From positions 36-64,035 of the forward strand of contig CAYRIY010000006.1 of NCBI GenBank assembly GCA_964424335.1: a stretch of 64,000 nt of DNA, in the 5' to 3' direction. The number at the start of each line of letters is the position of its first letter. Within the stretch, counting starts at the first letter, position 1. The position numbers and the translations under genes were made by a program. Below, in pieces: positions 1,056 to 38,084 of this stretch. Source of the DNA: an uncultured Clostridia bacterium. Its GTDB lineage: Bacteria > Bacillota > Limnochordia > DTU080 > RSA5. The notes under the pieces are model-generated. The model searched no databases. It had not been told where the DNA came from and saw only the letters and a program-made list of their open reading frames with translations.

Positions 1056-3356
1056 CTAAACGCGCACCAGCGGCATCCGCACCTTGCGCACCGCCTCGAG
1101 CGGGCCCCGCTCAATCGACTCGACGCCGGACCATTTTTCGATTAAATAGGCGCGCCGCCGCTCAAACAGCGACTGGGCGTCGACGCCTTGGCGGCTTAGG
1201 ATGCCGAGGGATGAATGGATCGCTCGGTGTAGGTACGTCATGCCGAAAAAACGAGCGATGATAAAGCCCGCAGTAGAAATTTGAAAGGCGAGGTCGTTGT
1301 CCTCAAAGCCCCATCCCGGCCCGTCGAACGGATCACGCTCGTCGAAGCGGACGCCTGCCTCGAATACCTCTTTGCGAAACATCCCGTATTGAGTCCACGC
1401 GACGTCGTCGTTCTCTTCGACCTTGCGGCCATCGACCCCGTACAGATAGGGCGTCGCCCGCTCCCTCCTCGGCGTTTGGCCCGCCGAATCGGCCCCGAGG
1501 CAGCCGAGTTCCCTACCAAATGTCTCCATGGCGCGAAACATCGAGTACGACGAAAACGGTACGATTTCGACGTCACCGTCGAGAAAGAGGACGTAATCGG
1601 CGCCTGCTTCGAGGGCGCAGTCGATCATCTGGTTGCGAGCGATCGAGTTGCCGCGGTTGACCTTGTTGAGGATGAGCTTGTGCTCGACGTCGATCTCGGA
1701 CGAAAACTTTTGCAGCGCCTCCGCGGTGCCGTCGTCCGATCCGTTGTCACAGATGCAAACAAAGGCGCGAAGGCCGAGTCGCTCCAGCATCCTCGCTTCT
1801 TCCACCAGCGATCGGGCCGACTCGAGGCTGATCTCCCGCGTGTTCCATGTCAGGAGGCCGAGGCAAATCTTGTGCTTATGAGGTCGAGCGGCCGAGTGGG
1901 TGGCTCCTACTTTTTCAAAGACTCCGCCCATCACGGCGTGGGGCGCGGCTTCAACGTTGAGATAAAGCGAGCGATCCCCTTCGAGGGGTTCACCCACTGG
2001 AACGGAGATTGGCCTAAGACCGACGCCTTCGCATAGCGCTGTCCACTCATCCACCGTCACCTTGTTCCATCCGTTAAAGACTTCCCTGCGATCGCTCCGG
2101 ATTACGCCCGATCGGAGGAGATTGTCTCGTTCCCAGAGCGAATCGAAATAGTAGTCACTGGTCAGGATGAGGCGCCCGCCGATCTTGAGTTTGTCGCTGA
2201 GTGCGCAGATCAATTGCGCTCGCTGCGGGGCAAGGAGGTGCTCGAGCGTGTTGATGCAAAACACCCGGTCAAAACTGCCGTCTGGAAACCCCCGAGGCGT
2301 GCGAAACCTCTTGTCTGCAACCGGATTCCAGTAGCGATAGAGGACGTGGGGAAACAGCCTGCCGATCCGCTCTTCGAAGTTCACCGGATTGATCGTGCAG
2401 TCCAAGACGGACATCGTATCCGAAAGCTCCGCCGCAAAGAGCGCCCAGGGCAGCTCCCACCTGCGCATCCGGGGAAGTTTCTGCATGTAATTGAATGCCT
2501 GCAACTCCCTCGTTTCGAGGCGTTCTATTGTCGCGACGCACGGATCGGCGCCAGCCCTCAAAGGTACCGATGTCTCTGGAGCGCTCAGCGCCACGTCGTT
2601 TTCGCCCCTTCTCCGGCAGTTTGGTTTCCAGTCTCGATACGTCTTCCAATCGTCGCCGAGAAGCCGACGGATAGGGCCGACGTCTATCTCTTCCCAGTAC
2701 GATCCCGTCGTCCGTTTTGGGCTCACGTTTTGGCCGTGAATGATACCCACGTGAAACGTGTTGTCGTCAAGGACGAGCGCTCGTTCCCTGACCCGGGATG
2801 CGAAGCGGACGTCTTCGCCGACGTCCTGATCCGGAAACGGGTTGCTGCGCCATAGCTCTTTTGTGTAACAAAGGGTGCTTCCCGAGAGCCAAAAGGGTCG
2901 GCTGCTCCGGACCGGAGCGTCATTTTGGTACGCATGCGCGCGGCCGCGGTCCACGTCGTAGAAAAGGAGCCTTTGCAATCCGCAAATCTCTAGGCCTGAA
3001 GCCGCCAGGGCGTCGACTTGAAACGCGATGCGCCGCGGCGCGTGCCAGTCGTCGTCGTCCCAGTGCAGCACGACGTCGCCCCTTGCCGCTTCGCAGGCGA
3101 TGTTCCGCTTCGCGCCGACCGTATGGCGACGATGGAGGCGAACGTAGCGAACGCTCACACCTCTCGAACCGTTCGCGGCGCCTGCGTCGGTCGCCCAGCT
3201 ATCCACTAAGTCTCCGACCGGATCGCTCCCGTCATCGACCACGATCAGTTCCCGGTTTGGGTAGGTTTGCCGCCTGAAGTATTCGAGCGCAAGGGGAGCA
3301 AAGGCCCTCCGGTTGTATGTGGGCATGATGCAGGATACGAGCGGCAGCTCACGCAC
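1056..3356 (-). CDS. multidomain glycosyltransferase: GT2, class I SAM methyltransferase, GT2
   Basis: N-terminal LVSCIMPTYNRR...VVDDGSDP (GT2 signature). Central FCINTLEHLL...GGRLILTSDYY (methyltransferase-like). Second GT2 with ICDNGSDDGT. Start re-called at GTG 3356 (VRELPLVSCIMPTYN), giving a GTGCGTGA overlap with the TPR gene stop. The ORF-track start at 3614 would overlap the TPR gene by 265 nt. Confidence 0.7.
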   Translation of the reverse strand: MRELPLVSCIMPTYNRRAFAPLALEYFRRQTYPNRELIVVDDGSDPVGDLVDSWATDAGAANGSRGVSVRYVRLHRRHTVGAKRNIACEAARGDVVLHWDDDDWHAPRRIAFQVDALAASGLEICGLQRLLFYDVDRGRAHAYQNDAPVRSSRPFWLSGSTLCYTKELWRSNPFPDQDVGEDVRFASRVRERALVLDDNTFHVGIIHGQNVSPKRTTGSYWEEIDVGPIRRLLGDDWKTYRDWKPNCRRRGENDVALSAPETSVPLRAGADPCVATIERLETRELQAFNYMQKLPRMRRWELPWALFAAELSDTMSVLDCTINPVNFEERIGRLFPHVLYRYWNPVADKRFRTPRGFPDGSFDRVFCINTLEHLLAPQRAQLICALSDKLKIGGRLILTSDYYFDSLWERDNLLRSGVIRSDRREVFNGWNKVTVDEWTALCEGVGLRPISVPVGEPLEGDRSLYLNVEAAPHAVMGGVFEKVGATHSAARPHKHKICLGLLTWNTREISLESARSLVEEARMLERLGLRAFVCICDNGSDDGTAEALQKFSSEIDVEHKLILNKVNRGNSIARNQMIDCALEAGADYVLFLDGDVEIVPFSSYSMFRAMETFGRELGCLGADSAGQTPRRERATPYLYGVDGRKVEENDDVAWTQYGMFRKEVFEAGVRFDERDPFDGPGWGFEDNDLAFQISTAGFIIARFFGMTYLHRAIHSSLGILSRQGVDAQSLFERRRAYLIEKWSGVESIERGPLEAVRKVRMPLVRV

Positions 3357-4401
3357 CGGGCTCCGACCGCCTTGAAGCTTTTGATGCAGGTCGCCGGGTT
3401 GCAAGGTACCTACGAGCCTCTGCGGCGTACTTGCCAAAGACTTGCTCGGATAGGGGGCGGAGCAGTTCGAGCGCTTCGCTTTCGTTTCCAAGCTGATCGA
3501 GGGCAATGCCGCGGTAAAATCGCACCCGATCGCCCTCGTGACCCTTGGCGTCGATACCCTCCAGGTGGCCAAGCGCCTGGTCCGCCTTCCCTTCCGCAAG
3601 ATCGAGCACTGCAAGGTCCACCCGCGCGCCGACGTCGGACGGGTCGAATTTTACGGCCCGCTCAAATTCTCGGCGCGCCGCCCCACGGTCGCCCGTCGCC
3701 ATGTACACCATGCCGAGATGGCGCCGAGCGAGGGCCGCATCCGGATCGACGGCGAGCGCCCTCTTTAGCGCATCCGCCGCCGAACCGAAATCCTTGCGCA
3801 AAAAGAGCGCCACGCCAAGCTGCGTCCACGCCTCCACGGACTCAAGGTCGAGCGAAGCGGCCTCCTTGAGGATCCGAACGGCTTCGTCGAGGCGACCTTG
3901 AGCGGCCACCGCCATGCCAAGCCCCGTGTAGAGCAGGCTGACGTCGCTTGGCGCGGACTCGCCCACGGCGCTGATCGCTTCCGCCCAGGCACGTTCGGCC
4001 TCAGCATGACGACCTGCTTTAAAGAGGACGCGCCCGAGGCTGTCCCACGCAAGGACGTTGCCGGCGTCGATCGCCACCGCCTCGCGCAAGTGCCGCACTG
4101 CCCCGATTACGTCTCCTTTCATCGCCCGCACATTGCCGAGGTTGCCCCGAGCCATGCTTGCGTTCGGGTTCAGCTCGATCGCGCGCAGGTAAAGCTCTTC
4201 GGCCTCCTCGATCCGCCCCTCTTGGGCGTACAGGAAACCGAGGTTGTTGAGCGCCGTCGCATTGTCGGGGTCGGCCGCTAGCGCCTCCTCGTATGCCTGT
4301 TTCGCGCCTTGGAGATCGCCTTCCAGGTGAAGGAGCGCCCCTCGATTGCTCGCCGCCTGCGACTCTGGAGTAGGAGACGCCGATTCTTGCAAGGATGACA
4401 T
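3349..4401 (-). CDS. TPR repeat protein
   Basis: Multiple 34-aa TPR units (AYEEALAADPDNATALNNLGFLYAQEGRIEEAEELYLRAIELNPN...) across 350 aa. Confidence 0.8.
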   Translation of the reverse strand: MSSLQESASPTPESQAASNRGALLHLEGDLQGAKQAYEEALAADPDNATALNNLGFLYAQEGRIEEAEELYLRAIELNPNASMARGNLGNVRAMKGDVIGAVRHLREAVAIDAGNVLAWDSLGRVLFKAGRHAEAERAWAEAISAVGESAPSDVSLLYTGLGMAVAAQGRLDEAVRILKEAASLDLESVEAWTQLGVALFLRKDFGSAADALKRALAVDPDAALARRHLGMVYMATGDRGAARREFERAVKFDPSDVGARVDLAVLDLAEGKADQALGHLEGIDAKGHEGDRVRFYRGIALDQLGNESEALELLRPLSEQVFGKYAAEARRYLATRRPASKASRRSEPGA

Positions 4402-4453: not shown

Positions 4454-7400
4454 TCAGACCACCGCGTCCACGAGGTCGCTGATGAGGTCCTTCACATCGA
4501 CATCAGGCACGATGAACTCTACATCGGAGAGCGAGATGTCAAAGGGCTTTCCTTCCTCGTAATGCACGGGAAACTTCACGCCGAAGCGCAGGTTGGAGCC
4601 GAACTCCATCCTGGCCAGCTCCCAACTCCTCTCGTAGAGCGTGATGGTCTTGAGCAAGAGGTCGAGCTCGACGTTGACGAAGGCCTCGATATTAAAGACA
4701 AACTTGGGCTGTACGTACAATTCGCCGAGGGCGTCGATCTTGAGCCCCTCCGCTGGGGTCCAGTCGATGTTGACACCCGTGTTTAGTGCGCCTTCCAACC
4801 CCAACCGGCCGCCTACCTCAAGCCCTGCCGTGGCGCTCACGATCGGAATCCCGGCGCCGATGCCACCTTGTACGTAAAGGCGCAAACCGGCGGACGCGGG
4901 CACATGGAGCTCGGCCGACCCCGTGACGTGCGTCTGGTCCTCGTGATCGGGATTGTAGGTGATGCCAAGCGATACGTTGCGGAGCACCCCGGGGCCGATG
5001 CCCGCCTCGGCTTCGAGTCCGCCTCGAATCGTCGCGAAGATGCCAATGCGACGGCCGGCCGCCGCCACGCCGATGATCGGGATGTCGAGGGGAGGCGGCC
5101 TGAGGATGTCCTTTTCGTACGCCAACCTCTCGAAAAGTTCGATGGTATCGGGAAAGCCGATCTGCCCGGAGATCTCGATCTCGCCGTTTTCTAAGAGCCG
5201 CAGTCCGACAGTGCCCTGGAGCCAGGGAGCGATCCGCACCGTCACGCTGCCGCCGCCAAAAGCCCGCAAGGTGTCTCCGGGTTCGCCGCTTGGTTCGCCG
5301 CTGTCGTCGACTGGACGATTGGTCACGCCTAGCTCGACGCGGCCCTTCATCATGCCGCGCTCGTACTCGGCCGATCCCTGGATCGTAAAGAGGCCGTCGT
5401 CGTAGCTCACGCTCAAACTCGTATCGACCCCGGGAATGTCGGGCTGGGCCGAGCCTTCGGCGCTCACCTTCCAGCCGTCTTCGCCTTTTCGCACCGTCAC
5501 GTCGATCGAGCCGCTGCGGATGCCCGGGACGTCTTGGGAAAGCGTGAAGCCTCCCCCAATCGTTAGGCCGTCCTGCTCGGAAAACGAGAGCGACATCCTA
5601 CCTTGCTCGATCCCGGGAATGTCCGGGGCCACCTCGCCTTCGGCCGAGAACAGGCCGCTCGCGTACTCCGCAGTGATGCGCCCCGAGCGGATGCCTCTGA
5701 CTTTTCGCGGGCCGATGACGAGCGTCCCTCGGGCGCCAAACGCGTCGTCCCGGTACCAAAGGTCGATCTCTGCCTGTTCGAATAGGTCCGTGTCAAAGCT
5801 AAAGGAGCCTTGCAAGTGGAGGCCGCCGCGGGAGTTCGCGACGCCTCGCACGTACCCTTCGCCCGCCCCCTCGATGGCAAAGTCGATTTGCCCCTCGACG
5901 ACAAAGCCGCGCTCCGTGCTGATCGCAAGTGTGAGCGACGAGTCGCGCACCACAAAGGGGGCCGGCACGTTGAAGTCGCCCGGACGAAACTCCTTGTAGA
6001 CCGAAAAGTCCGAACCGGAGAGCTCAAAGCCAAGATCGAGGTCGCCGATGAGCGGCGTCTCCGGGAGGATTGCCCCGATCGCGTACAATCCGCCCTCCGG
6101 AAGCACGTCGAAGTAGTCGACGCGAATCGGGCTGAGCCGCTTCACCCGCATGCTGCGCAAGTGCGCACGGACCGCCGCCTTGTCGATATACCCGGCATAC
6201 CGGGCCCCCTGCCAGCGATGAATCGGAATCTCTTTGTCTTCCGGAAATGGTTGCCACTTGTCGTCGTTCTCTTTGACGTTCACCTTGAACGACCCGATCG
6301 AGCTTTGAGACGGAGCGTCGTCACCCTCCGTCACAAAGCGCTTCGATTTGATGACAAAGGGACTGAGCCAGTCGCGCTCGGCAGAGGTTGCCGCCGCCTC
6401 CTTTCCCTCGGCGTTTCGAAGCGAAAACTGCTTTCCAAGGCCGTGGCCGGCTTCGGAGGGGAAAATCCGCACCTTGCCGTTGCCGCCGATGTCGGCCAAG
6501 TTGGCGGGCGCAACGGGCCCGAGGTGATCGCCCTTTTTGATCTCCTCTTTAGTCCAAAAGTCGTTCGGACCCGGCTGCTGGCCGAAGTTGCCGCCGACAG
6601 GGTCGTTGAACTTGAGGTTGTACCCTCTTTTGATCGTCGCCGCGTCGTCGCCGAATCGCCCGTCCGTGGCTTGAATAAACGTGCGAACTTTATCCTCGAC
6701 CTTTTGCTTGATCACACTGCCGGAAGAACGGTTGACGCTCGAATCGAGCAACTCCATGTTCTCAACCGTATTTGCCCAGCTCCGATCTTCGGGCCAATTC
6801 GCAAGTTGGAGCTCGAGCACGTGATCGACGTCGAAGGAGTGCGGCTCGCCCGCCCGGTCCCACTGCGGCAGTGTCAATGCCTTCGCAATCTGTGGCAGCT
6901 CGCCGATGAAGTACAGCGGCTTGTTCTTGCCATATTTCGACGGCGCTTTAAAGACGTACGGCTCGCCGGGAGTGACGGCGCCGTAGGCCTGTTCATACTT
7001 GCTCTGGAGCGCCGTCTCGACTGTGCTCGTCTCTTTGCCGAGATCACGCTGCCAGACTTCCCTCTGGCGCGTGTTTCTGCGACTCTCTTCCGTGTAGGTC
7101 CGAGCTCGCTGCAAGTCGCGCTCGTAGATCGTCGCCCGATGGTCCGAAACCTTGAACATCGGCACCTCGATCTGTGAAAACGTAATGTCTTCGCCTTCGA
7201 GGACGCCCGTCGCTTCGGTCATGGCCGGCGCATCGGTCGCTTGTTCCTGCTCGTCTGTTTGCTCCCCGCCGCCTCCATCGCCTTGTTCGTCTGCATCCTC
7301 GCGCTGCACGATGGCTCCTCGGGAAAAAGTTTGCACCGCTCCTCCCGGGCTCTGCTGCGCCGCGCCCTGCTCGGCGGCGCCCTGTTGAAAGACGTGCGTC

Positions 7401-8329
7401 ATCTCGTGCGCCATCAGCCGAACGTCGTGATCCGACTCCCCGTGACCGAGCCAGATGTCGCTGCCGTGCGTAAAGGCGCGGGCATTGATCCCAGCAGCGG
7501 CCTCCCGGTCTTGGGGGCCGTCGTGGACGCGCACATGGCCCAAGTCCGCGCCAAACGCTGGCTCGAGTCTGCTCCGCACGCCGGCGTCGAGGGGCCTGCC
7601 TGCGCCGCGGCCCTCGATCGCTCGTGCGGCAATCGCGGCAGGCCCGCCTTCACCGCTTGCTTGGACCGGCTCTTCCTCGTCGAGCCCCTTTGGCTGCACC
7701 GGTTCCTCGTCTTCCGATGACATCGCCTGCACGGGTTCCTCGGCGTCGATGAAGTCCGCCTGTACTTGATCGCTTTCATCGTCGAGCTTGGCCTGGACGG
7801 GCTCCTCGTCCTCCGCGGCGAGGGCCTGCGCCGGACTTCCCGATGCGCCTCCCAGCCCGCCCGGTCCGATCGACGAGATCGCAGGCGCCTCCAGGCCGGA
7901 TGCGACTCGGCCTGCGACCCGATCAGCCTCCCGCTCGTAGCGGTCGCCCGCTTCGCCAATCGTGACTTTGCGCTGCACGCCGCCCGCGAGGGCAACGGCC
8001 GGACCGCCGGCGGACATCAGTCCAAGGCCCGAGCTCCCTGCGTGGGCCAAAACGTGGGGCCCACCGCGTCTCGGCGTCGTGACTCGCCCTTTTGAGCCGG
8101 CCTCCTTGGCGGACTCACCGCCTCTTGCTCGCTTCTTGCTGCCGACCGCGCTGCCCATGGCGCCCCCCTCCTTTCGAAACCGCCCCCATGAACGCCGCGG
8201 GCGAGCGCTCGCGATTTGAGCGCTCCGACTCGCCGTCCAGCGGGCAAAGTCCGCCGTTTTTGCGATACTCAGCGCGAACTGCGGCCTCGAGGCGATCGCT
8301 CGTGATCGGCCCGCGCTCTTCGAGCGCAA
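4454..8329 (-). CDS. eCIS-associated effector candidate: DUF4157 (HExxH zinc-peptidase-like) N-terminal domain plus a large Gly-rich, beta-rich C-terminal region
   Basis: DUF4157 hallmarks GDRYEREADRVA ... LGHVRVH ... AFTHGSDIWLG ... HEMTHVFQQ. Acidic tandem EEPVQ repeats. The listed start overlaps the ATPase gene. The real start is probably internal (M at about 8161 or 8020). Confidence 0.7.
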   Translation of the reverse strand: MRSKSAGRSRAIASRPQFALSIAKTADFARWTASRSAQIASARPRRSWGRFRKEGGAMGSAVGSKKRARGGESAKEAGSKGRVTTPRRGGPHVLAHAGSSGLGLMSAGGPAVALAGGVQRKVTIGEAGDRYEREADRVAGRVASGLEAPAISSIGPGGLGGASGSPAQALAAEDEEPVQAKLDDESDQVQADFIDAEEPVQAMSSEDEEPVQPKGLDEEEPVQASGEGGPAAIAARAIEGRGAGRPLDAGVRSRLEPAFGADLGHVRVHDGPQDREAAAGINARAFTHGSDIWLGHGESDHDVRLMAHEMTHVFQQGAAEQGAAQQSPGGAVQTFSRGAIVQREDADEQGDGGGGEQTDEQEQATDAPAMTEATGVLEGEDITFSQIEVPMFKVSDHRATIYERDLQRARTYTEESRRNTRQREVWQRDLGKETSTVETALQSKYEQAYGAVTPGEPYVFKAPSKYGKNKPLYFIGELPQIAKALTLPQWDRAGEPHSFDVDHVLELQLANWPEDRSWANTVENMELLDSSVNRSSGSVIKQKVEDKVRTFIQATDGRFGDDAATIKRGYNLKFNDPVGGNFGQQPGPNDFWTKEEIKKGDHLGPVAPANLADIGGNGKVRIFPSEAGHGLGKQFSLRNAEGKEAAATSAERDWLSPFVIKSKRFVTEGDDAPSQSSIGSFKVNVKENDDKWQPFPEDKEIPIHRWQGARYAGYIDKAAVRAHLRSMRVKRLSPIRVDYFDVLPEGGLYAIGAILPETPLIGDLDLGFELSGSDFSVYKEFRPGDFNVPAPFVVRDSSLTLAISTERGFVVEGQIDFAIEGAGEGYVRGVANSRGGLHLQGSFSFDTDLFEQAEIDLWYRDDAFGARGTLVIGPRKVRGIRSGRITAEYASGLFSAEGEVAPDIPGIEQGRMSLSFSEQDGLTIGGGFTLSQDVPGIRSGSIDVTVRKGEDGWKVSAEGSAQPDIPGVDTSLSVSYDDGLFTIQGSAEYERGMMKGRVELGVTNRPVDDSGEPSGEPGDTLRAFGGGSVTVRIAPWLQGTVGLRLLENGEIEISGQIGFPDTIELFERLAYEKDILRPPPLDIPIIGVAAAGRRIGIFATIRGGLEAEAGIGPGVLRNVSLGITYNPDHEDQTHVTGSAELHVPASAGLRLYVQGGIGAGIPIVSATAGLEVGGRLGLEGALNTGVNIDWTPAEGLKIDALGELYVQPKFVFNIEAFVNVELDLLLKTITLYERSWELARMEFGSNLRFGVKFPVHYEEGKPFDISLSDVEFIVPDVDVKDLISDLVDAVV
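7651..7816 (-). repeat. in-frame tandem repeats encoding an acidic (D/E)EEPVQ(A/P) linker, at least 4 copies
   Basis: Nucleotide repeats ctgcaccggttcctcgtc / ctgcacgggttcctcggc / ctggacgggctcctcgtc on the + strand. Translation AEDEEPVQA...DAEEPVQA...EDEEPVQP...DEEEPVQA. Confidence 0.7.
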
Positions 8330-17651: not shown

Positions 17652-20548
17652 GCCAGGCGGTCGCGGCCGAGCACCGTTCGCTCACGCACGTTCCACGGGT
17701 GTCCATAGGCGAGGTACTGTTCGCCCAGCGCGCCCTGTCCGACCACGGCCGCGGCCAGCCGACTGCTCCGACCGGGCTGCGTATCGATGCCAAGCCTCGC
17801 CTCACCAACTCGAAACATCGCCCAATACGGCTTGATCTCAAACTCGGTGTGCGCCGGTTTTTCTAAGGATACGACTCGGCGCACCACCTCAGGATCGGGG
17901 CCGACCGCTAGCCTCGCCGAACCGCCCTCTATGCCTGGAGCGTCGACCTCTCCCAAGACCGGTACGAGCACCGTAAACCGGTGCGCCCGCTCGAGCGCCG
18001 GCACGTAGATGGATGCGAAGTGGATCCAGTCGAGTAGCGCTCGCCTGGAAGTGGGCAGGCGCTCCGGCAACGGGACGTCGGCGAATGCGCCGGCGCCGAG
18101 CGAAGCGTAGTAGGGCGACGCTTGAACGAGGGCGCTGACCCGCCGGTAGCGGCGCTCTAGAAATTGCTGGTAAGCGCTGATGTCCGACGCCTCGATCGCG
18201 GCGTACGCAAATCCGATCGCAGAGCGCGTAAACGCCTGCCACGCCTCGGCCTGCGCCGCATCTTCCGGCATGACCGGGGGGAATTCGACCTCGTCGAACG
18301 AAGCGAAGGACGAGTTCCAGGCCTGGTTTAGCCGATTTATGTCGCCAAAGCGGTCCGTCAAAAACTGCCGGTATCGCTTGTGGATCGGGTCGGGACCTTG
18401 GGAGGGGCTCCACGGCACACGGGGCGTGCTCACGCCAGGACCTTCTCGCTCACTTGGATTTCCAAATAAAACGCCGGGCCTCTTGCGGGTGAGAAATTGC
18501 TCCACGATGCGGATGCTGCGAGCGCTTCCGATACATGCGGCCCCGACGCACTCGCCCAAGACCGGCTCGGTAAAGATCGAATCGTCAGGACATGGGTCCG
18601 TGGCGAGCCGGATCGCCCGGACGATGCCCGAAACGGTGCCACGCTCGGCAAACATCCGAGGCGCATGGCGAATCAGCAGGCGCTTGCGACCTTCATCCCA
18701 CGCCTCATCCAAGGCAAGTCCGAGCCAGCCTGCGAGCCACTCGAGCGATTCGGCCGGAGCCGTACGGGGATCAAAAAACACTTGTGCATTTGCGATCCGG
18801 TCCTCGAGCGCTGTGAACACGCCCTCAGGGTTGGCGAGAAACCGCTCGAGAAACGAAGCAGAGCTAGGGTCTTCCCTGTAGACTGCGGGCAAGTACTCCT
18901 CGAGGTACGAAAAGCGTGGATAATACACCCGAACGGCCCTCAACCGGGGCGTCGTCCTCCCATTGCCCGCAAGAGAGATGCGAAGCTGGAGGAAACGTCC
19001 CCGCGCCTTTTGCAACAAGAGCTCCCAAGTCCCTGCGCTCTTTGGCCCTCCGCTTTTTTGATCCAGATACGGACGGTAAAAGGGAATTTCCGCTCCCATC
19101 GGCCGCAAGTACGGGTCAGGCTCTCGCTGCCAGGGCGTCGCCTGTAGCATATGAGCGTCATCCGCCGCTCTGCTTTCGACCGTAATCGACGCTCCGGGGG
19201 GAATCACGGCGTCGAGCATGGCGCGGTGCCACACGCACGCGCGCTCTTTGCCGTCGAATGCAAGGCCTGCAAATCCGCCCGCTTCGAGGGGGACGCCCAC
19301 CACTGGGAGCACGCCCGCAGGCACGAAGCGCTTCCTTGGCTTTTCAGCGAGCTCTACCCAGGCGATCGCGCCTTGCTCAAACCGGTCGTAGTAGACGACT
19401 CCGTCACCCATTGTGCCTAAAGCCGCCACGAGGCCTCGTCCGCCAAAGCTCCTCATCGGCAGGTAACGCATTTCGAGTTCGAGCTCAAGGCCGAGCTCTC
19501 CGGACGGCAAGTCGCGAGCCGGATCGGCGGTGAGGGAGAACGCAAAGGACTGGTTGCCGTCCGCGCCCGTGATGTAGAGCGTGCCTGACGTGCGGCCGGG
19601 TTCAGGCAAGCTGCCCTCTTTTCGCGGAAGAAACGCGAAGTCAAACGCCGTGAACGGCTCGTCCTCAAAGACGCCATGGGGCGCGGCGACGCCATATGGA
19701 CGACTGCCTACGAAACGGCGCACCCGTGCGTCGCCGGCGCCGGCGTCGAGGATCAGCACGGAGCCGTCCGATAGAGCCTCGATCGCGATCGGATTTTCAG
19801 CCTCAAAGGGCGCGGCGTCCTCGAGCGCGATGCCCGTGGGGAAGGTTCTCGCAGGCTTCGGCTGGCGCTCAGGTCCGTCTTCCGGGTGAAAGTGAAACGC
19901 ATGTGCCGGTTCGATTTCGACGCGCTCCTGATCGACGTCGAGCGTTTGGAAATGCCGATCCAACACCCAATACCTCGAATGCTCCCGATCGAGTATGTAC
20001 AGGAGCCCGCCTGGACCTGCCGCCATGTCGTACGGCGCAAAAGGGATTTCGCTTGGCCAATCCATCCAAAGCGGCGGACCGCCCGCATGCAGGTCGAAGA
20101 TGATCAATCCGGCCGGATCGAGGGCGCCCGCGACCAGGTAGCGCTCCTCGGTTACGGCAAGCCCGCGCATCCGTGCAAACTGCGCGGTGGGTGGCGGCGC
20201 CTCGGGCCCAAAATCGCCCGGGCTAGGCGTTTGGAGTTCGGGCTCTTGCCCTGGCCAAAAGAGCTCGGGCCGTGCGAGCCCTGCAGGAAGCATGTAGATC
20301 GCGTCGCCTTCGCCTGAAATCCAGTACCAGTTGCCATGCGGGTCGATGGCCGCTCCATTGCGGCGCTCCAAAGAAGGAGGAACTTCGGAGGGCGACCGCT
20401 CAAATCGAAAGAGCCGACGCGCCAGGATCACGGAGTTCGACGCATCGTCCCAAGCGATGCCCCGATCCGGGCCGCCCGCCTCATGAAGCGCGGGTCGCCA
20501 GTTCGCCTCGCCGATCAGCATGTGAAATCGTGTTTGGTTGGCGTCCAA
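17648..20548 (-). CDS. eCIS baseplate protein (Afp12/Pvc12-like, P2 gpI-like C-terminus)
   Basis: About 960 aa, a size typical of Afp12. The C-terminal region resembles phage tail protein I. It lies immediately downstream of the baseplate J gene and ends in an ATGA overlap with the next gene. Confidence 0.55.
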   Translation of the reverse strand: MDANQTRFHMLIGEANWRPALHEAGGPDRGIAWDDASNSVILARRLFRFERSPSEVPPSLERRNGAAIDPHGNWYWISGEGDAIYMLPAGLARPELFWPGQEPELQTPSPGDFGPEAPPPTAQFARMRGLAVTEERYLVAGALDPAGLIIFDLHAGGPPLWMDWPSEIPFAPYDMAAGPGGLLYILDREHSRYWVLDRHFQTLDVDQERVEIEPAHAFHFHPEDGPERQPKPARTFPTGIALEDAAPFEAENPIAIEALSDGSVLILDAGAGDARVRRFVGSRPYGVAAPHGVFEDEPFTAFDFAFLPRKEGSLPEPGRTSGTLYITGADGNQSFAFSLTADPARDLPSGELGLELELEMRYLPMRSFGGRGLVAALGTMGDGVVYYDRFEQGAIAWVELAEKPRKRFVPAGVLPVVGVPLEAGGFAGLAFDGKERACVWHRAMLDAVIPPGASITVESRAADDAHMLQATPWQREPDPYLRPMGAEIPFYRPYLDQKSGGPKSAGTWELLLQKARGRFLQLRISLAGNGRTTPRLRAVRVYYPRFSYLEEYLPAVYREDPSSASFLERFLANPEGVFTALEDRIANAQVFFDPRTAPAESLEWLAGWLGLALDEAWDEGRKRLLIRHAPRMFAERGTVSGIVRAIRLATDPCPDDSIFTEPVLGECVGAACIGSARSIRIVEQFLTRKRPGVLFGNPSEREGPGVSTPRVPWSPSQGPDPIHKRYRQFLTDRFGDINRLNQAWNSSFASFDEVEFPPVMPEDAAQAEAWQAFTRSAIGFAYAAIEASDISAYQQFLERRYRRVSALVQASPYYASLGAGAFADVPLPERLPTSRRALLDWIHFASIYVPALERAHRFTVLVPVLGEVDAPGIEGGSARLAVGPDPEVVRRVVSLEKPAHTEFEIKPYWAMFRVGEARLGIDTQPGRSSRLAAAVVGQGALGEQYLAYGHPWNVRERTVLGRDRLA

Positions 20549-36346: not shown

Positions 36347-36934
36347 ATGAAAGGCAGCAGCTTTACGCGAGGAAGGGGGACGCACGAGGTGGCCCAACGT
36401 GCCTTGGGACATGAGATTCTCGACTGGCTTCGCACGATTGTGATCGGAGGGGCATGCGCGGCCTTCGTGATCTTGTTTATCGCCCAATCTTACGTCGTCG
36501 AAGGCTCTTCGATGGATCCCAACATGCGCGATCGAGATCGCTTGCTGGTAGAGAAGGTCAGTTATCGGTTGCATGAGCCCCGTCGAGGCGATGTCGTCGT
36601 CTTTCGCACCGAAAGCGAAGCGTTGATCAAGCGCGTCATCGCCGTCCCCGGCGACACGGTCCTCATCAAGGATCACGGCGTGTACGTCAACGGGATCCGA
36701 CTCGAAGAGGACTACCTCAATGACCGAATGATCGCCTACAGGCAGATCGGTCCGCTCACCGTACCCGAAGACCAGTATTATGTGCTGGGCGACAACCGAA
36801 ACGTCAGCAGGGACAGCCGCGATCCGACGCTCGGATTGGTCAAGGCAGAGACCATCGTTGGGCGAGCCCTTGTTCGTTACTGGCCCTTGACCCGAGTCGG
36901 CATCATCCAGGCCTTCCGCCCCTACGGGGAGTGA
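36347..36934 (+). CDS. lepB: signal peptidase I
   Basis: S26 boxes VEGSSMDP, RGDVVVF, IKRVIAVPGD, YYVLGDNRNVSRDSR. Confidence 0.85.
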   Translation: MKGSSFTRGRGTHEVAQRALGHEILDWLRTIVIGGACAAFVILFIAQSYVVEGSSMDPNMRDRDRLLVEKVSYRLHEPRRGDVVVFRTESEALIKRVIAVPGDTVLIKDHGVYVNGIRLEEDYLNDRMIAYRQIGPLTVPEDQYYVLGDNRNVSRDSRDPTLGLVKAETIVGRALVRYWPLTRVGIIQAFRPYGE

Positions 36935-38084
36935 CCGCATCGCTTGGCCGATGCTCACGGCGTGTGCCGCACGATTTGCGGATCACGAGGTGGGTCTCCA
37001 GCACCACGCCCTTTGAGGCTCCGCCGCCGGATCCGATCAACTCGAGGAGGAGAGCGGTCGCTCTGCGACCTATCTCCTCTTTTTGCTGCGCCACCGTCGT
37101 GAGCGGCACGTCGATGCGATCGGCAATGTCGATGTCGTCAAATCCGATCACCGCCATCTCCTCCGGAACGTGGACGCCCATCGTTCGGCACGCAGCAATG
37201 ACGTCGAGCGCGACGAGGTCGTTCACGGCAAACACCGCGGTGACTCCAAGGTCGAGGAGCGTCGTCGCAAGGCCGCGATAGGCCTCATGAGCAGATTTTT
37301 CATCCATCCTGGATATTTGGGGAACAAAAACGTATAGGCTCGAGTCGTACGACAGCCCTTTTCGTTCGAACGCCTCCCGGTACCCGGCAAATCGATCCCA
37401 GACCGTATGGACGCTGAGCGGGCTCCCCGCGGCAAAAGCGATCCGCTCATGACCGTGATCGATCAAGTGCATGACCGCCTCCGCCGCCCCCTTTTGGTTG
37501 TCGGAGATCACATACGACACGTCGCTCCGCTGTAGGCGTCGGTCCATCGTGACGCACGGGATCCCATTGAGCAAGAGCGCGTCTAGTCCGGGCAGGACGA
37601 CGACTTCGTCCGTCGGAAAGATGAGCAGCCCACTGAGGCCCACGCCCGCGAGTTCCGCGATCACCTCCGCTTCCCGCCTCGCGTCGGCCCTCGAGCTTCG
37701 AAAGACAAGCTCAAACCCGCTTGCGGTCGCCGCCTGCTCCACACCTCGGATCACGTCCGAAAGGAAGTGGTCGGTGACGTACGGCACGACCAGCCCGATC
37801 AGTCCGGCGTTGACGTCCTTGGCTCCCTGTTTTTCGCCTCGATTTCTTCCCCGGCCGATGCGCACAAACGTCCCCCGGCCCCGAAGCCGCTCCACAAACC
37901 CGCTTCGTTCCAGGTCGGCGAGGGCTTGGCGCACCGTGTGACGACTCACGAAAAACTGCTCGGAAAGCTGATGCTCAGAAGGGATGAGTTCGCCGTCCGA
38001 TAGCCGCCCAGCCTCGATGTCCGATCGGAGCCGGCGACTCAATTGAATGTATAATGGAATTCCACCGCGAGGATCCAGCCTCAT
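36903..38084 (-). CDS. GntR-family HTH transcriptional regulator with a periplasmic-binding-protein (LacI-type) sugar-binding domain
   Basis: N-terminus IPLYIQLSRRLRSDIEAGRL...LIPSEHQLSEQFFVSRHTVRQALADL (GntR HTH), then a PBP1-type fold (LIGLVVPYVTDHF..., AVNDLVALDVIAACR). Confidence 0.75.
   Translation of the reverse strand: MRLDPRGGIPLYIQLSRRLRSDIEAGRLSDGELIPSEHQLSEQFFVSRHTVRQALADLERSGFVERLRGRGTFVRIGRGRNRGEKQGAKDVNAGLIGLVVPYVTDHFLSDVIRGVEQAATASGFELVFRSSRADARREAEVIAELAGVGLSGLLIFPTDEVVVLPGLDALLLNGIPCVTMDRRLQRSDVSYVISDNQKGAAEAVMHLIDHGHERIAFAAGSPLSVHTVWDRFAGYREAFERKGLSYDSSLYVFVPQISRMDEKSAHEAYRGLATTLLDLGVTAVFAVNDLVALDVIAACRTMGVHVPEEMAVIGFDDIDIADRIDVPLTTVAQQKEEIGRRATALLLELIGSGGGASKGVVLETHLVIRKSCGTRREHRPSDAVTPRRGGRPG

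Follow-up and report, generated by a model that had tools for sequence, protein, structure and literature searches.

What is the role of a large DUF4157 protein encoded beside a contractile injection system: toxin, delivery helper or structural part of the particle? This question is raised by a stretch of 64,000 nucleotides (nt) from an uncultured Clostridia bacterium (contig CAYRIY010000006.1 of assembly GCA_964424335.1), hereafter the window, in which a minus-strand open reading frame (ORF) at 4454..8329 has upstream of it, on the same strand, a complete contractile-injection-system operon recognisable with Pfam and NCBIfam models. The gene is likely to encode a cargo of such a system, that is, a full-length homologue of Cgo2, which is carried by the AlgoCIS particle of Algoriphagus machipongonensis.

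The evidence that carries this assignment is a protein, P0215, retrieved by a search seeded with Bacteroidota members. It is a 1228-residue A. machipongonensis protein annotated as an eCIS core domain protein (eCIS_core being the present Pfam name of DUF4157, PF13699), and its locus reads, in order, tape-measure protein, 498-residue DUF4157 protein, P0215, 289-residue tetratricopeptide repeat (TPR) protein and 435-residue AAA protein. Because the lengths of 498 and 1228 residues equal those published for Cgo1 and Cgo2 (bioRxiv 10.64898/2026.05.27.728243), P0215 is, by organism, length and neighbours, Cgo2 (ALPR1_12690) of AlgoCIS. An early idea that Cgo2 is unrelated to the window protein, which came from first homologue searches that returned no Algoriphagus sequence, was thereby overturned. 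In BLASTP, the window protein aligns with P0215 over its residues 62-1231 (576 bits, E=0, 32% identity in 1275 columns), and the alignment takes in every part of the protein, from the N-terminal motif and acidic repeats through DUF4157 and the middle module to the beta-rich end, with identity rising to ~45% in the last 565 residues. The two proteins have the same parts in the same order, namely a QxKLxxGxxGDxYExEAD motif, acidic EExVQ repeats, DUF4157, a DH...N...N module and a beta-rich C-terminus, and each gene is directly followed by a TPR gene and has an AAA+ ATPase gene as a neighbour. They differ in that the N-terminal tip of the window protein is longer and more basic, and in gene order, which is ATPase-cargo-TPR in the window and Cgo1-Cgo2-TPR-ATPase in Algoriphagus. 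Cgo2 fills the tube lumen, as seen by cryo-electron tomography and mass spectrometry, and is lost upon contraction (PMC8894135). The proposal, made in an earlier note on this DNA, of an injection-system cargo or effector is therefore upheld by full-length homology to a proven lumen cargo; by the same homology the window protein would sit in the lumen and be released from it, a behaviour demonstrated for Cgo2 alone.

The window protein is one more member of a known and very large cargo family. When its C-terminal 950 residues are used as a query, all the matches are proteins of 1150-1330 residues in which DUF4157 precedes the same C-terminal region, and whose annotation goes no further than DUF4157 or eCIS core domain protein. 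An exhaustive profile search returned 1454 cluster representatives at E<=1e-3, of which 671 also pass E<=1e-30 (the family size of ~1450 counts clusters at 50% identity), and nearly all of the best 150 matches have 1150-1350 residues and the architecture of the window protein. A scan of species-representative genomes gave 68 loci in >10 phyla, which include Bacteroidota, Alpha-, Beta- and Gammaproteobacteria, Desulfobacterota, Myxococcota, Acidobacteriota, Actinomycetota, Planctomycetota, Chloroflexota and others; the scan pattern, VDH[IV][VL]ELQ[LI], excludes Cgo2 (IDHKQELQL), and Algoriphagus is therefore outside these 68 loci. Six family members (P0046, P0048, P0053, P0064, P0098 and P0106) are longer, at 2250-2440 residues, with the Cgo2-type region C-terminal and a second matched stretch, and may be fusions or duplications. 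An exact-sequence query of the assembly collection with the window protein gave no record. NCBIfam has no match for the cargo protein, and whole-length searches against PDB sequences, with the single sequence or a profile, gave nothing beyond the non-significant protease match discussed below.

Where does the protein begin? The ORF is open throughout, with 1291 codons counted from a TTG at 8329. The true start is almost certainly the ATG at 8158, because a GGAGG (8167-8171) lies at the right distance, 8 nt upstream, and the two closest homologues (P0001 and P0002) begin at the equivalent position; the TTG was discarded in its favour. The most likely coding sequence of this Cgo2 orthologue is 4454..8158 (minus strand), or 1234 residues plus stop, and residue numbers throughout refer to that protein. 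The 57 codons between the TTG and the ATG (8159..8329, minus strand) fall inside the 3' end of the ATPase gene, and the Arg-rich extension that they would encode, absent from every homologue compared, is probably an untranslated artefact of ORF calling. The overlap with the ATPase gene, on account of which the start had been called uncertain, is thus real but of just 44 nt, and 57 of the 90 residues of a basic N-terminus to which importance had been attached lie upstream of the likely start and are probably never made.

How such a protein would be loaded can be read by analogy with Cgo1 and Cgo2, whose loading requires the region before DUF4157 together with ATP hydrolysis by Alg15, the AAA+ ATPase that loads both, neither DUF4157 nor the C-terminal domain being needed (bioRxiv 10.64898/2026.05.27.728243). 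In the window protein, the matching region starts with a basic, Gly-rich and presumably disordered tip (residues 1-60; 7979..8158, minus strand), residues 1-70 having a net charge of +8 and 23% Gly. Between this tip and the repeats stands a conserved motif, VQRKVTIGEAGDRYEREADRVAGRV (residues 61-85; 7904..7978, minus strand), in which E75 and A78 are invariant among homologues; a motif of this kind precedes HExxH in 244 of 266 family proteins. Next come five tandem 11-residue acidic repeats, (D/E)EEPVQxxxxx (residues 115-169; 7652..7816, minus strand), evident from composition and from Tandem Repeats Finder, which reports a period of 33 nt at 7694-7762. Their VQ pairs are at residues 121, 132, 143, 154 and 165, four of them within an exact EEPVQ and one within a degenerate ESDQVQ, and residues 96-188 have a net charge of -17. 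The repeat that the earlier note had described is thus genuine, but it precedes DUF4157 (residues 189-261) instead of following it. Because Cgo1 and Cgo2 carry EE(E)xVQ repeats in the equivalent place, these repeats belong to the loading region and are not a linker. In Cgo1 (locus L069, 8468-9964), the N-terminal region has about nine near-perfect EEEExVQ repeats of the same type. Cgo1 (ALPR1_12695) and the DUF4157 toxins associated with extracellular injection systems (the EATs of Geller et al. 2021; PMC8213781) share the whole layout of N-terminal ExEAD motif, acidic EEEExVQ repeats, DUF4157 and C-terminal effector part; in the 498-residue Cgo1, the C-terminal part is unrelated to the window protein and bears a second HExxH.

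The candidate loader is encoded next to the cargo. It is a 737-residue AAA+ ATPase (8115..10328, minus strand; Pfam AAA, E 1.1e-24), homologous to Alg15 (35% identity across 256 residues, E 1.5e-51). It is much longer than Alg15 (435 residues), the homology being confined to its last ~255 residues, beyond which extends an uncharacterised N-terminal stretch of ~440 residues. By analogy with AlgoCIS, the disordered N-terminal region of the cargo would be recognised by this ATPase. A packaging signal at the N-terminus, which had been suggested before, is thereby retained, but it would take in the supposed linker repeats, and most of the basic 90 residues once put forward for it are upstream of the start.

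If the cargo is a toxin, which part of it is toxic? The C-terminal region had been described as some 850 beta-rich residues, which does not hold: about 350 alpha/beta residues come first, and only the last 565 are all-beta and Gly-rich (13.6%). In the confident AlphaFold2 model of this middle region (residues 311-683; predicted local distance difference test, pLDDT, 90), a 230-residue module with an HNH- or His-Me-finger-like core can be delimited (residues 319-549; 6512..7204, minus strand) by the model, by its occurrence elsewhere and by profile hits, followed by a mixed alpha/beta second half that has no recognisable relative (residues 550-669; 6152..6511, minus strand). The putative active site, DHVLELQ...N(467)MELLD...N(476)RSSG, lies at residues 445-480 (6719..6826, minus strand) and centres on D445, H446, N467 and N476. 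Across 27 members at 21-43% identity, R360, W369, W433, D445, H446, Q451 and N476 are invariant, and across 292 module instances H446, N467 and N476 occur in 289 of 289 ungapped rows, D445 being present in 282 and replaced by Glu in 7. That DH...N...N is so absolutely conserved speaks for an active site in this module. In the model, DH closes one strand, N467 stands just before the next and N476 falls in the first turn of a long helix, which amounts to a beta-beta-alpha order (strand 132-136, strand 158-162 and helix 163-187 of the model of the middle region). Per-member Pfam scans of the 27 diverse members hit GmrSD_C in 6 (best E 2.4e-4) and HNH in 5 (best E 1.2e-3), both of the HNH clan, and no other Pfam family recurs among them. 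An hhalign comparison with residues 775-947 of SpCas9 (probability 53%, pairwise E 1.4e-4) places D445/H446, N467 and N476 on Cas9 D839/H840, N854 and N863, the Cas9 sequence having been checked against the PDB. The module shares with the HNH and His-Me nucleases (PF01844, GmrSD_C PF07510 and the Cas9 HNH domain) the register of D-H...N...N and, in the model, the order of its secondary structure; it differs from them by additional invariant residues, R360, W369, W433, E449 and Q451, and by 230-residue surroundings with no known relative.

The company that this module keeps is informative too. In four other DUF4157 proteins, from Leptospirales, Kofleriaceae, Janthinobacterium and Geodermatophilaceae, it forms the extreme C-terminus (L058, 7028-10720; L065, 8138-10387; L066, 7874-10390; L068, 8897-10336), the position at which toxin domains are found in DUF4157 effectors (PMC8213781). 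The Leptospirales protein, of 1230 residues, has a long hydrophobic helical middle as in Tme-type effectors. Tme (BN159_7576), a DUF4157 effector of Streptomyces davawensis, has an EndA-like nuclease C-terminus and a histidine-dependent toxicity (PMC11126660), and a DNase domain fused to DUF4157 is cited by Danov et al. (PMC11297309). Tme resembles the window cargo in its N-terminal DUF4157, its great length and its nuclease-like module, of EndA-type His-Me finger; it differs in having that nuclease at the extreme C-terminus, and transmembrane helices and tape-measure-like regions where the window cargo has a beta meander. On account of motif conservation, HNH-clan hits, Cas9 register, beta-beta-alpha order, C-terminal position of the module in other proteins and these DUF4157-nuclease precedents, we lean towards a divergent His-Me-finger nuclease, membership of the HNH family itself not being established. 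As judged from sequence and models, the module would be a better candidate for the toxic activity than the beta region.

The cargo gene is not the last of its operon, as had been thought. A gene for a 350-residue TPR protein, which matches Pfam TPR families, has no signal peptide and is cytoplasmic (3349..4401, minus strand), starts 52 nt beyond it, with no terminator in the gap. Among the 55 loci with enough flanking sequence, 38 have a TPR homologue on the same strand <=400 nt downstream of the cargo gene, and the pair is kept both in the 29 loci where the ATPase gene precedes it and in the 12 where that gene follows. The TPR gene adjoining cgo2 encodes a protein 32% identical to that of the window (E 1.6e-27). 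In the closest relative, unrelated genes on the opposite strand begin directly after the TPR gene. A cargo directed to membranes and encoded beside a dedicated cytoplasmic TPR (class II) chaperone is what is seen with type III secretion translocators. For the cargo-TPR pair this is no more than an analogy; there is no sequence relationship, and translocators are alpha-helical. In Halogeometricum, toxic DUF4157 proteins are neutralised by a gene downstream of them (PMC11566945). The TPR protein is a candidate chaperone, adaptor or immunity protein. It goes unmentioned in the AlgoCIS paper (PMC8894135) and preprint (bioRxiv 10.64898/2026.05.27.728243), and a full-text literature search returned no paper connecting a TPR protein with the cargo of an extracellular injection system.

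Put together, these elements suggest the following mechanism for a Cgo2-family cargo, in which (i) the AAA+ ATPase would recognise the disordered N-terminal region, made of basic tip, ExEAD helix and acidic 11-residue EEPVQ repeats, as extrapolated from the Cgo1/Cgo2 experiments, (ii) the refolded module of residues 319-549 would be a metal-dependent HNH-like nuclease that provides the toxic activity, (iii) the zincin-like DUF4157 domain would be accessory, possibly self-processing, and not the toxin, (iv) the 565-residue beta meander would contact lipid or membrane, or otherwise aid delivery and (v) the TPR protein, as chaperone, adaptor or immunity protein, would keep the cargo soluble and harmless in the producer cell. 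We give this explanation as a whole, from family membership to TPR helper, a probability of roughly 0.7.

Several points weigh against it. Purified AlgoCIS showed no toxicity toward any cell type tested (PMC8894135), and no toxicity of Cgo2 has been reported (PMC8894135; bioRxiv 10.64898/2026.05.27.728243). The architecture of the family is nearly invariant between phyla, unlike that of polymorphic toxins, which may signal a conserved, non-toxic role. The HNH-clan Pfam models stay below their gathering scores (GmrSD_C 20.5 vs 23; HNH 20.1 vs 21.4), with the window module itself under threshold at 15.5-16.1 bits, and a profile search with the module found no match among PDB sequences. For the beta meander and the TPR protein, function is inferred. 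Finally, the label 'extracellular' is, for the window operon, an assumption. The best matches of its sheath protein (32473-34401, minus strand) are 9ezm, a haloarchaeal sheath of the type VI secretion system-like kind, and 8bky and 8bl4, cytoplasmic sheaths of Streptomyces coelicolor (E ~1e-105 to 1e-110), the AlgoCIS, Afp and PVC sheaths reaching just ~1e-40. The sheath is thus far closer to these haloarchaeal and Streptomyces systems, cytoplasmic or type VI-like, than to AlgoCIS, and in this respect the host system differs from that of Cgo2.

The alternative that survives best, although we consider it unlikely, is that the protein is a conserved delivery helper, a near-universal accessory cargo that acts as translocator, plug or lumen filler for variable effectors such as Cgo1-like ones, with the TPR protein as its dedicated chaperone. 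It would account for an architecture unchanged in ~1450 clusters across phyla, for a cargo-TPR pair that moves as a unit irrespective of the position of the ATPase gene, and for the contrast between Cgo1, which is toxic, and AlgoCIS/Cgo2, for which toxicity is unreported; moreover, Cyclobacteriaceae loci pair the cargo gene with a second, smaller DUF4157 gene. The window, however, offers no second DUF4157 protein for it to help, the cargo gene being its only DUF4157 gene with no Cgo1-like second cargo as in AlgoCIS, Cgo1 and Cgo2 load AlgoCIS independently of one another (PMC8894135), and the HNH-like module sits, like a toxin domain, on its own at the C-terminus of other DUF4157 proteins.

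A membrane-active or pore-forming toxin, which the earlier note had raised as a possibility, is slightly less probable still. Here, the beta meander would insert, perhaps as an oligomer, and do the damage, with the HNH-like module reduced to a non-catalytic binding or structural role. The meander, Gly-rich, amphipathic and closed by a short helix (residues 670-1234; 4457..6151, minus strand), has some features that would suit this. Its ~33 strands run, in the AlphaFold2 model (pLDDT 82; predicted TM-score, pTM, 0.51), as an unbroken up-and-down meander with short turns, and three of them extend for 28-30 residues and show faces such as VGALVAALLVGIAI. About 18 of the 33 have one fully hydrophobic, uncharged face, a feature that is not membrane-specific, alternating hydrophobicity being equally normal in soluble beta sheets. 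In a Foldseek search of the PDB, the top matches are LptD (E 3e-6), the ApoB100 belt and VDAC, but with TM-scores of 0.14-0.25 and root-mean-square deviations of 13-38 A, and the model contains no closed barrel that superposes on known barrels. The structural likeness is local, that of an amphipathic antiparallel sheet whose nearest analogues are lipid-facing sheets, and lipid contact by the modelled meander, as in the mechanism above, is plausible. A pore is further disfavoured by the composition of the beta region, with a net charge of -37 and 23% charged residues, and by the absolute D-H...N...N conservation, which points to an active site.

Far less probable is that DUF4157 itself is a toxic metalloprotease. 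The domain is beyond dispute, as the signature noticed before lies within a PF13699 match (residues 189-261; 7376..7594, minus strand) of 81.1 bits against a cut-off of 22 (E 6.9e-23, profile positions 1-77 of 79) that includes LGHVRVH and HEMTHVFQQ. The invariance of its HExxHxxQQ (H251, E252, H255, Q258 and Q259, unvarying in 15 homologues), in which HEMTH occupies residues 251-255 (nt 7394-7408), would suit a protease, and HExxH is found in 264 of the 266 family proteins. So would a weak resemblance to M48 proteases that extends to a motif like that of the third zinc ligand. In a profile search against PDB sequences, DUF4157 aligns with the M48 protease BepA at a non-significant E of 0.24, and this alignment sets the N-terminal yEkeAD of the cargo on BepA NEQEAD. 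The zinc ligands of BepA are H136, H140, E201 and H246 (PMC7950410), and with a chain-numbering offset of 27 the first Glu of NEQEAD is E201, the third ligand. The N-terminal YEREADRVAGRV of the window protein resembles NEQEADRIGIQV, the BepA helix that bears E201. DUF4157 cargo and M48 enzymes (BepA, HtpX) share an NAxAFxxG...AHExxHxxQ pattern and an ExEADR(I/V) helix, but ExEAD stands ~175 residues before HExxH in the window protein, whereas the M48 Glu helix stands ~60 after it, and the H246 plug is missing. This pattern suggests that DUF4157 and the N-terminal ExEAD helix may together make up an M48-like zincin in circularly permuted form, the two parts being separated by the acidic repeat loop; with an E of 0.24 to BepA, the search gave neither a significant M48 match nor the canonical order of HExxH and Glu helix. 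As to the toxicity of such a domain, Cgo1 point mutants in HExxH are still toxic (PMC8894135), DUF4157 is common to effectors with many different toxin domains (PMC8213781) and it is dispensable for loading (bioRxiv 10.64898/2026.05.27.728243). As for a structural tail component (fibre, tape measure or sheath-associated protein), the size of the protein, its beta-rich nature and its place inside the operon could suggest one, but no sequence or fold similarity to such components, and nothing fibre-like, was found in it, which makes this reading the most improbable of all.

The remainder of the operon encodes the injection machine itself. Sheath, tube, spike, baseplate and cap genes occupy ~36015 to 10426, and comprise a Pvc16_N cap, two sheath-like genes, tube genes, a gpD-like hub, a gp5/VgrG spike with an oligonucleotide/oligosaccharide-binding (OB) fold, Baseplate_J, Tail_P2_I and two large proteins with weak CIS13 matches, besides the AAA+ ATPase. 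All the genes named next lie on the minus strand. The second sheath-like protein (28464-31667; 1067 residues) has sheath domains within its last 270 residues alone, and its first 800 have no Pfam match. The CIS13 matches of the 12701-15496 and 15531-17651 products are N-terminal, and both proteins are possible fibres; the former has, near its C-terminus, helix-hairpin-helix DNA-binding motifs that would be unexpected in a fibre, and the same protein occurs in the locus of the closest relative (L070). The 966-residue Tail_P2_I baseplate protein (17648-20548) matches glycoside hydrolase family 42 (beta-galactosidase) over part of its length. The cap, of 205 residues (35398-36015), consists of Pvc16_N only and is followed by a 300-residue ORF (34492-35394) with no Pfam or PDB match; this layout is reminiscent of the cap and cap-adaptor pair of AlgoCIS, but a cap adaptor was set aside as the ORF shows no similarity to Alg16B nor to any PDB sequence. 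A candidate for the operon's regulator is the GntR-family protein encoded directly upstream (36903-38084), which has a periplasmic-binding-protein-like sensor domain.

What could this mean for injection systems at large? Cgo2 is among the very few injection-system cargos for which location and loading have been shown experimentally, and its activity is unknown and the target of AlgoCIS has not been found (PMC8894135; bioRxiv 10.64898/2026.05.27.728243). The nuclease-like active site, the N-terminal motif and repeats, the beta region and the conserved TPR partner appear to be undescribed as features of the family. There are now three testable handles, the D-H...N...N site, the amphipathic beta region and the TPR partner, on ~1450 clusters from >10 phyla. 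One can even imagine, although we consider it improbable, a conserved two-part weapon, not a simple toxin, in which the TPR-chaperoned sheet inserts in the target membrane and carries a new His-Me-finger branch across, and the permuted zincin cuts its own VQ-repeat loop, which would shed the loading signal after injection. If this were true, a single, widespread protein would account for how cargo matures, crosses the membrane and kills in a large share of contractile injection systems. Because such systems are now being adapted as engineered vehicles for protein delivery, it is worth separating a native cargo into signal, enzyme and helper.

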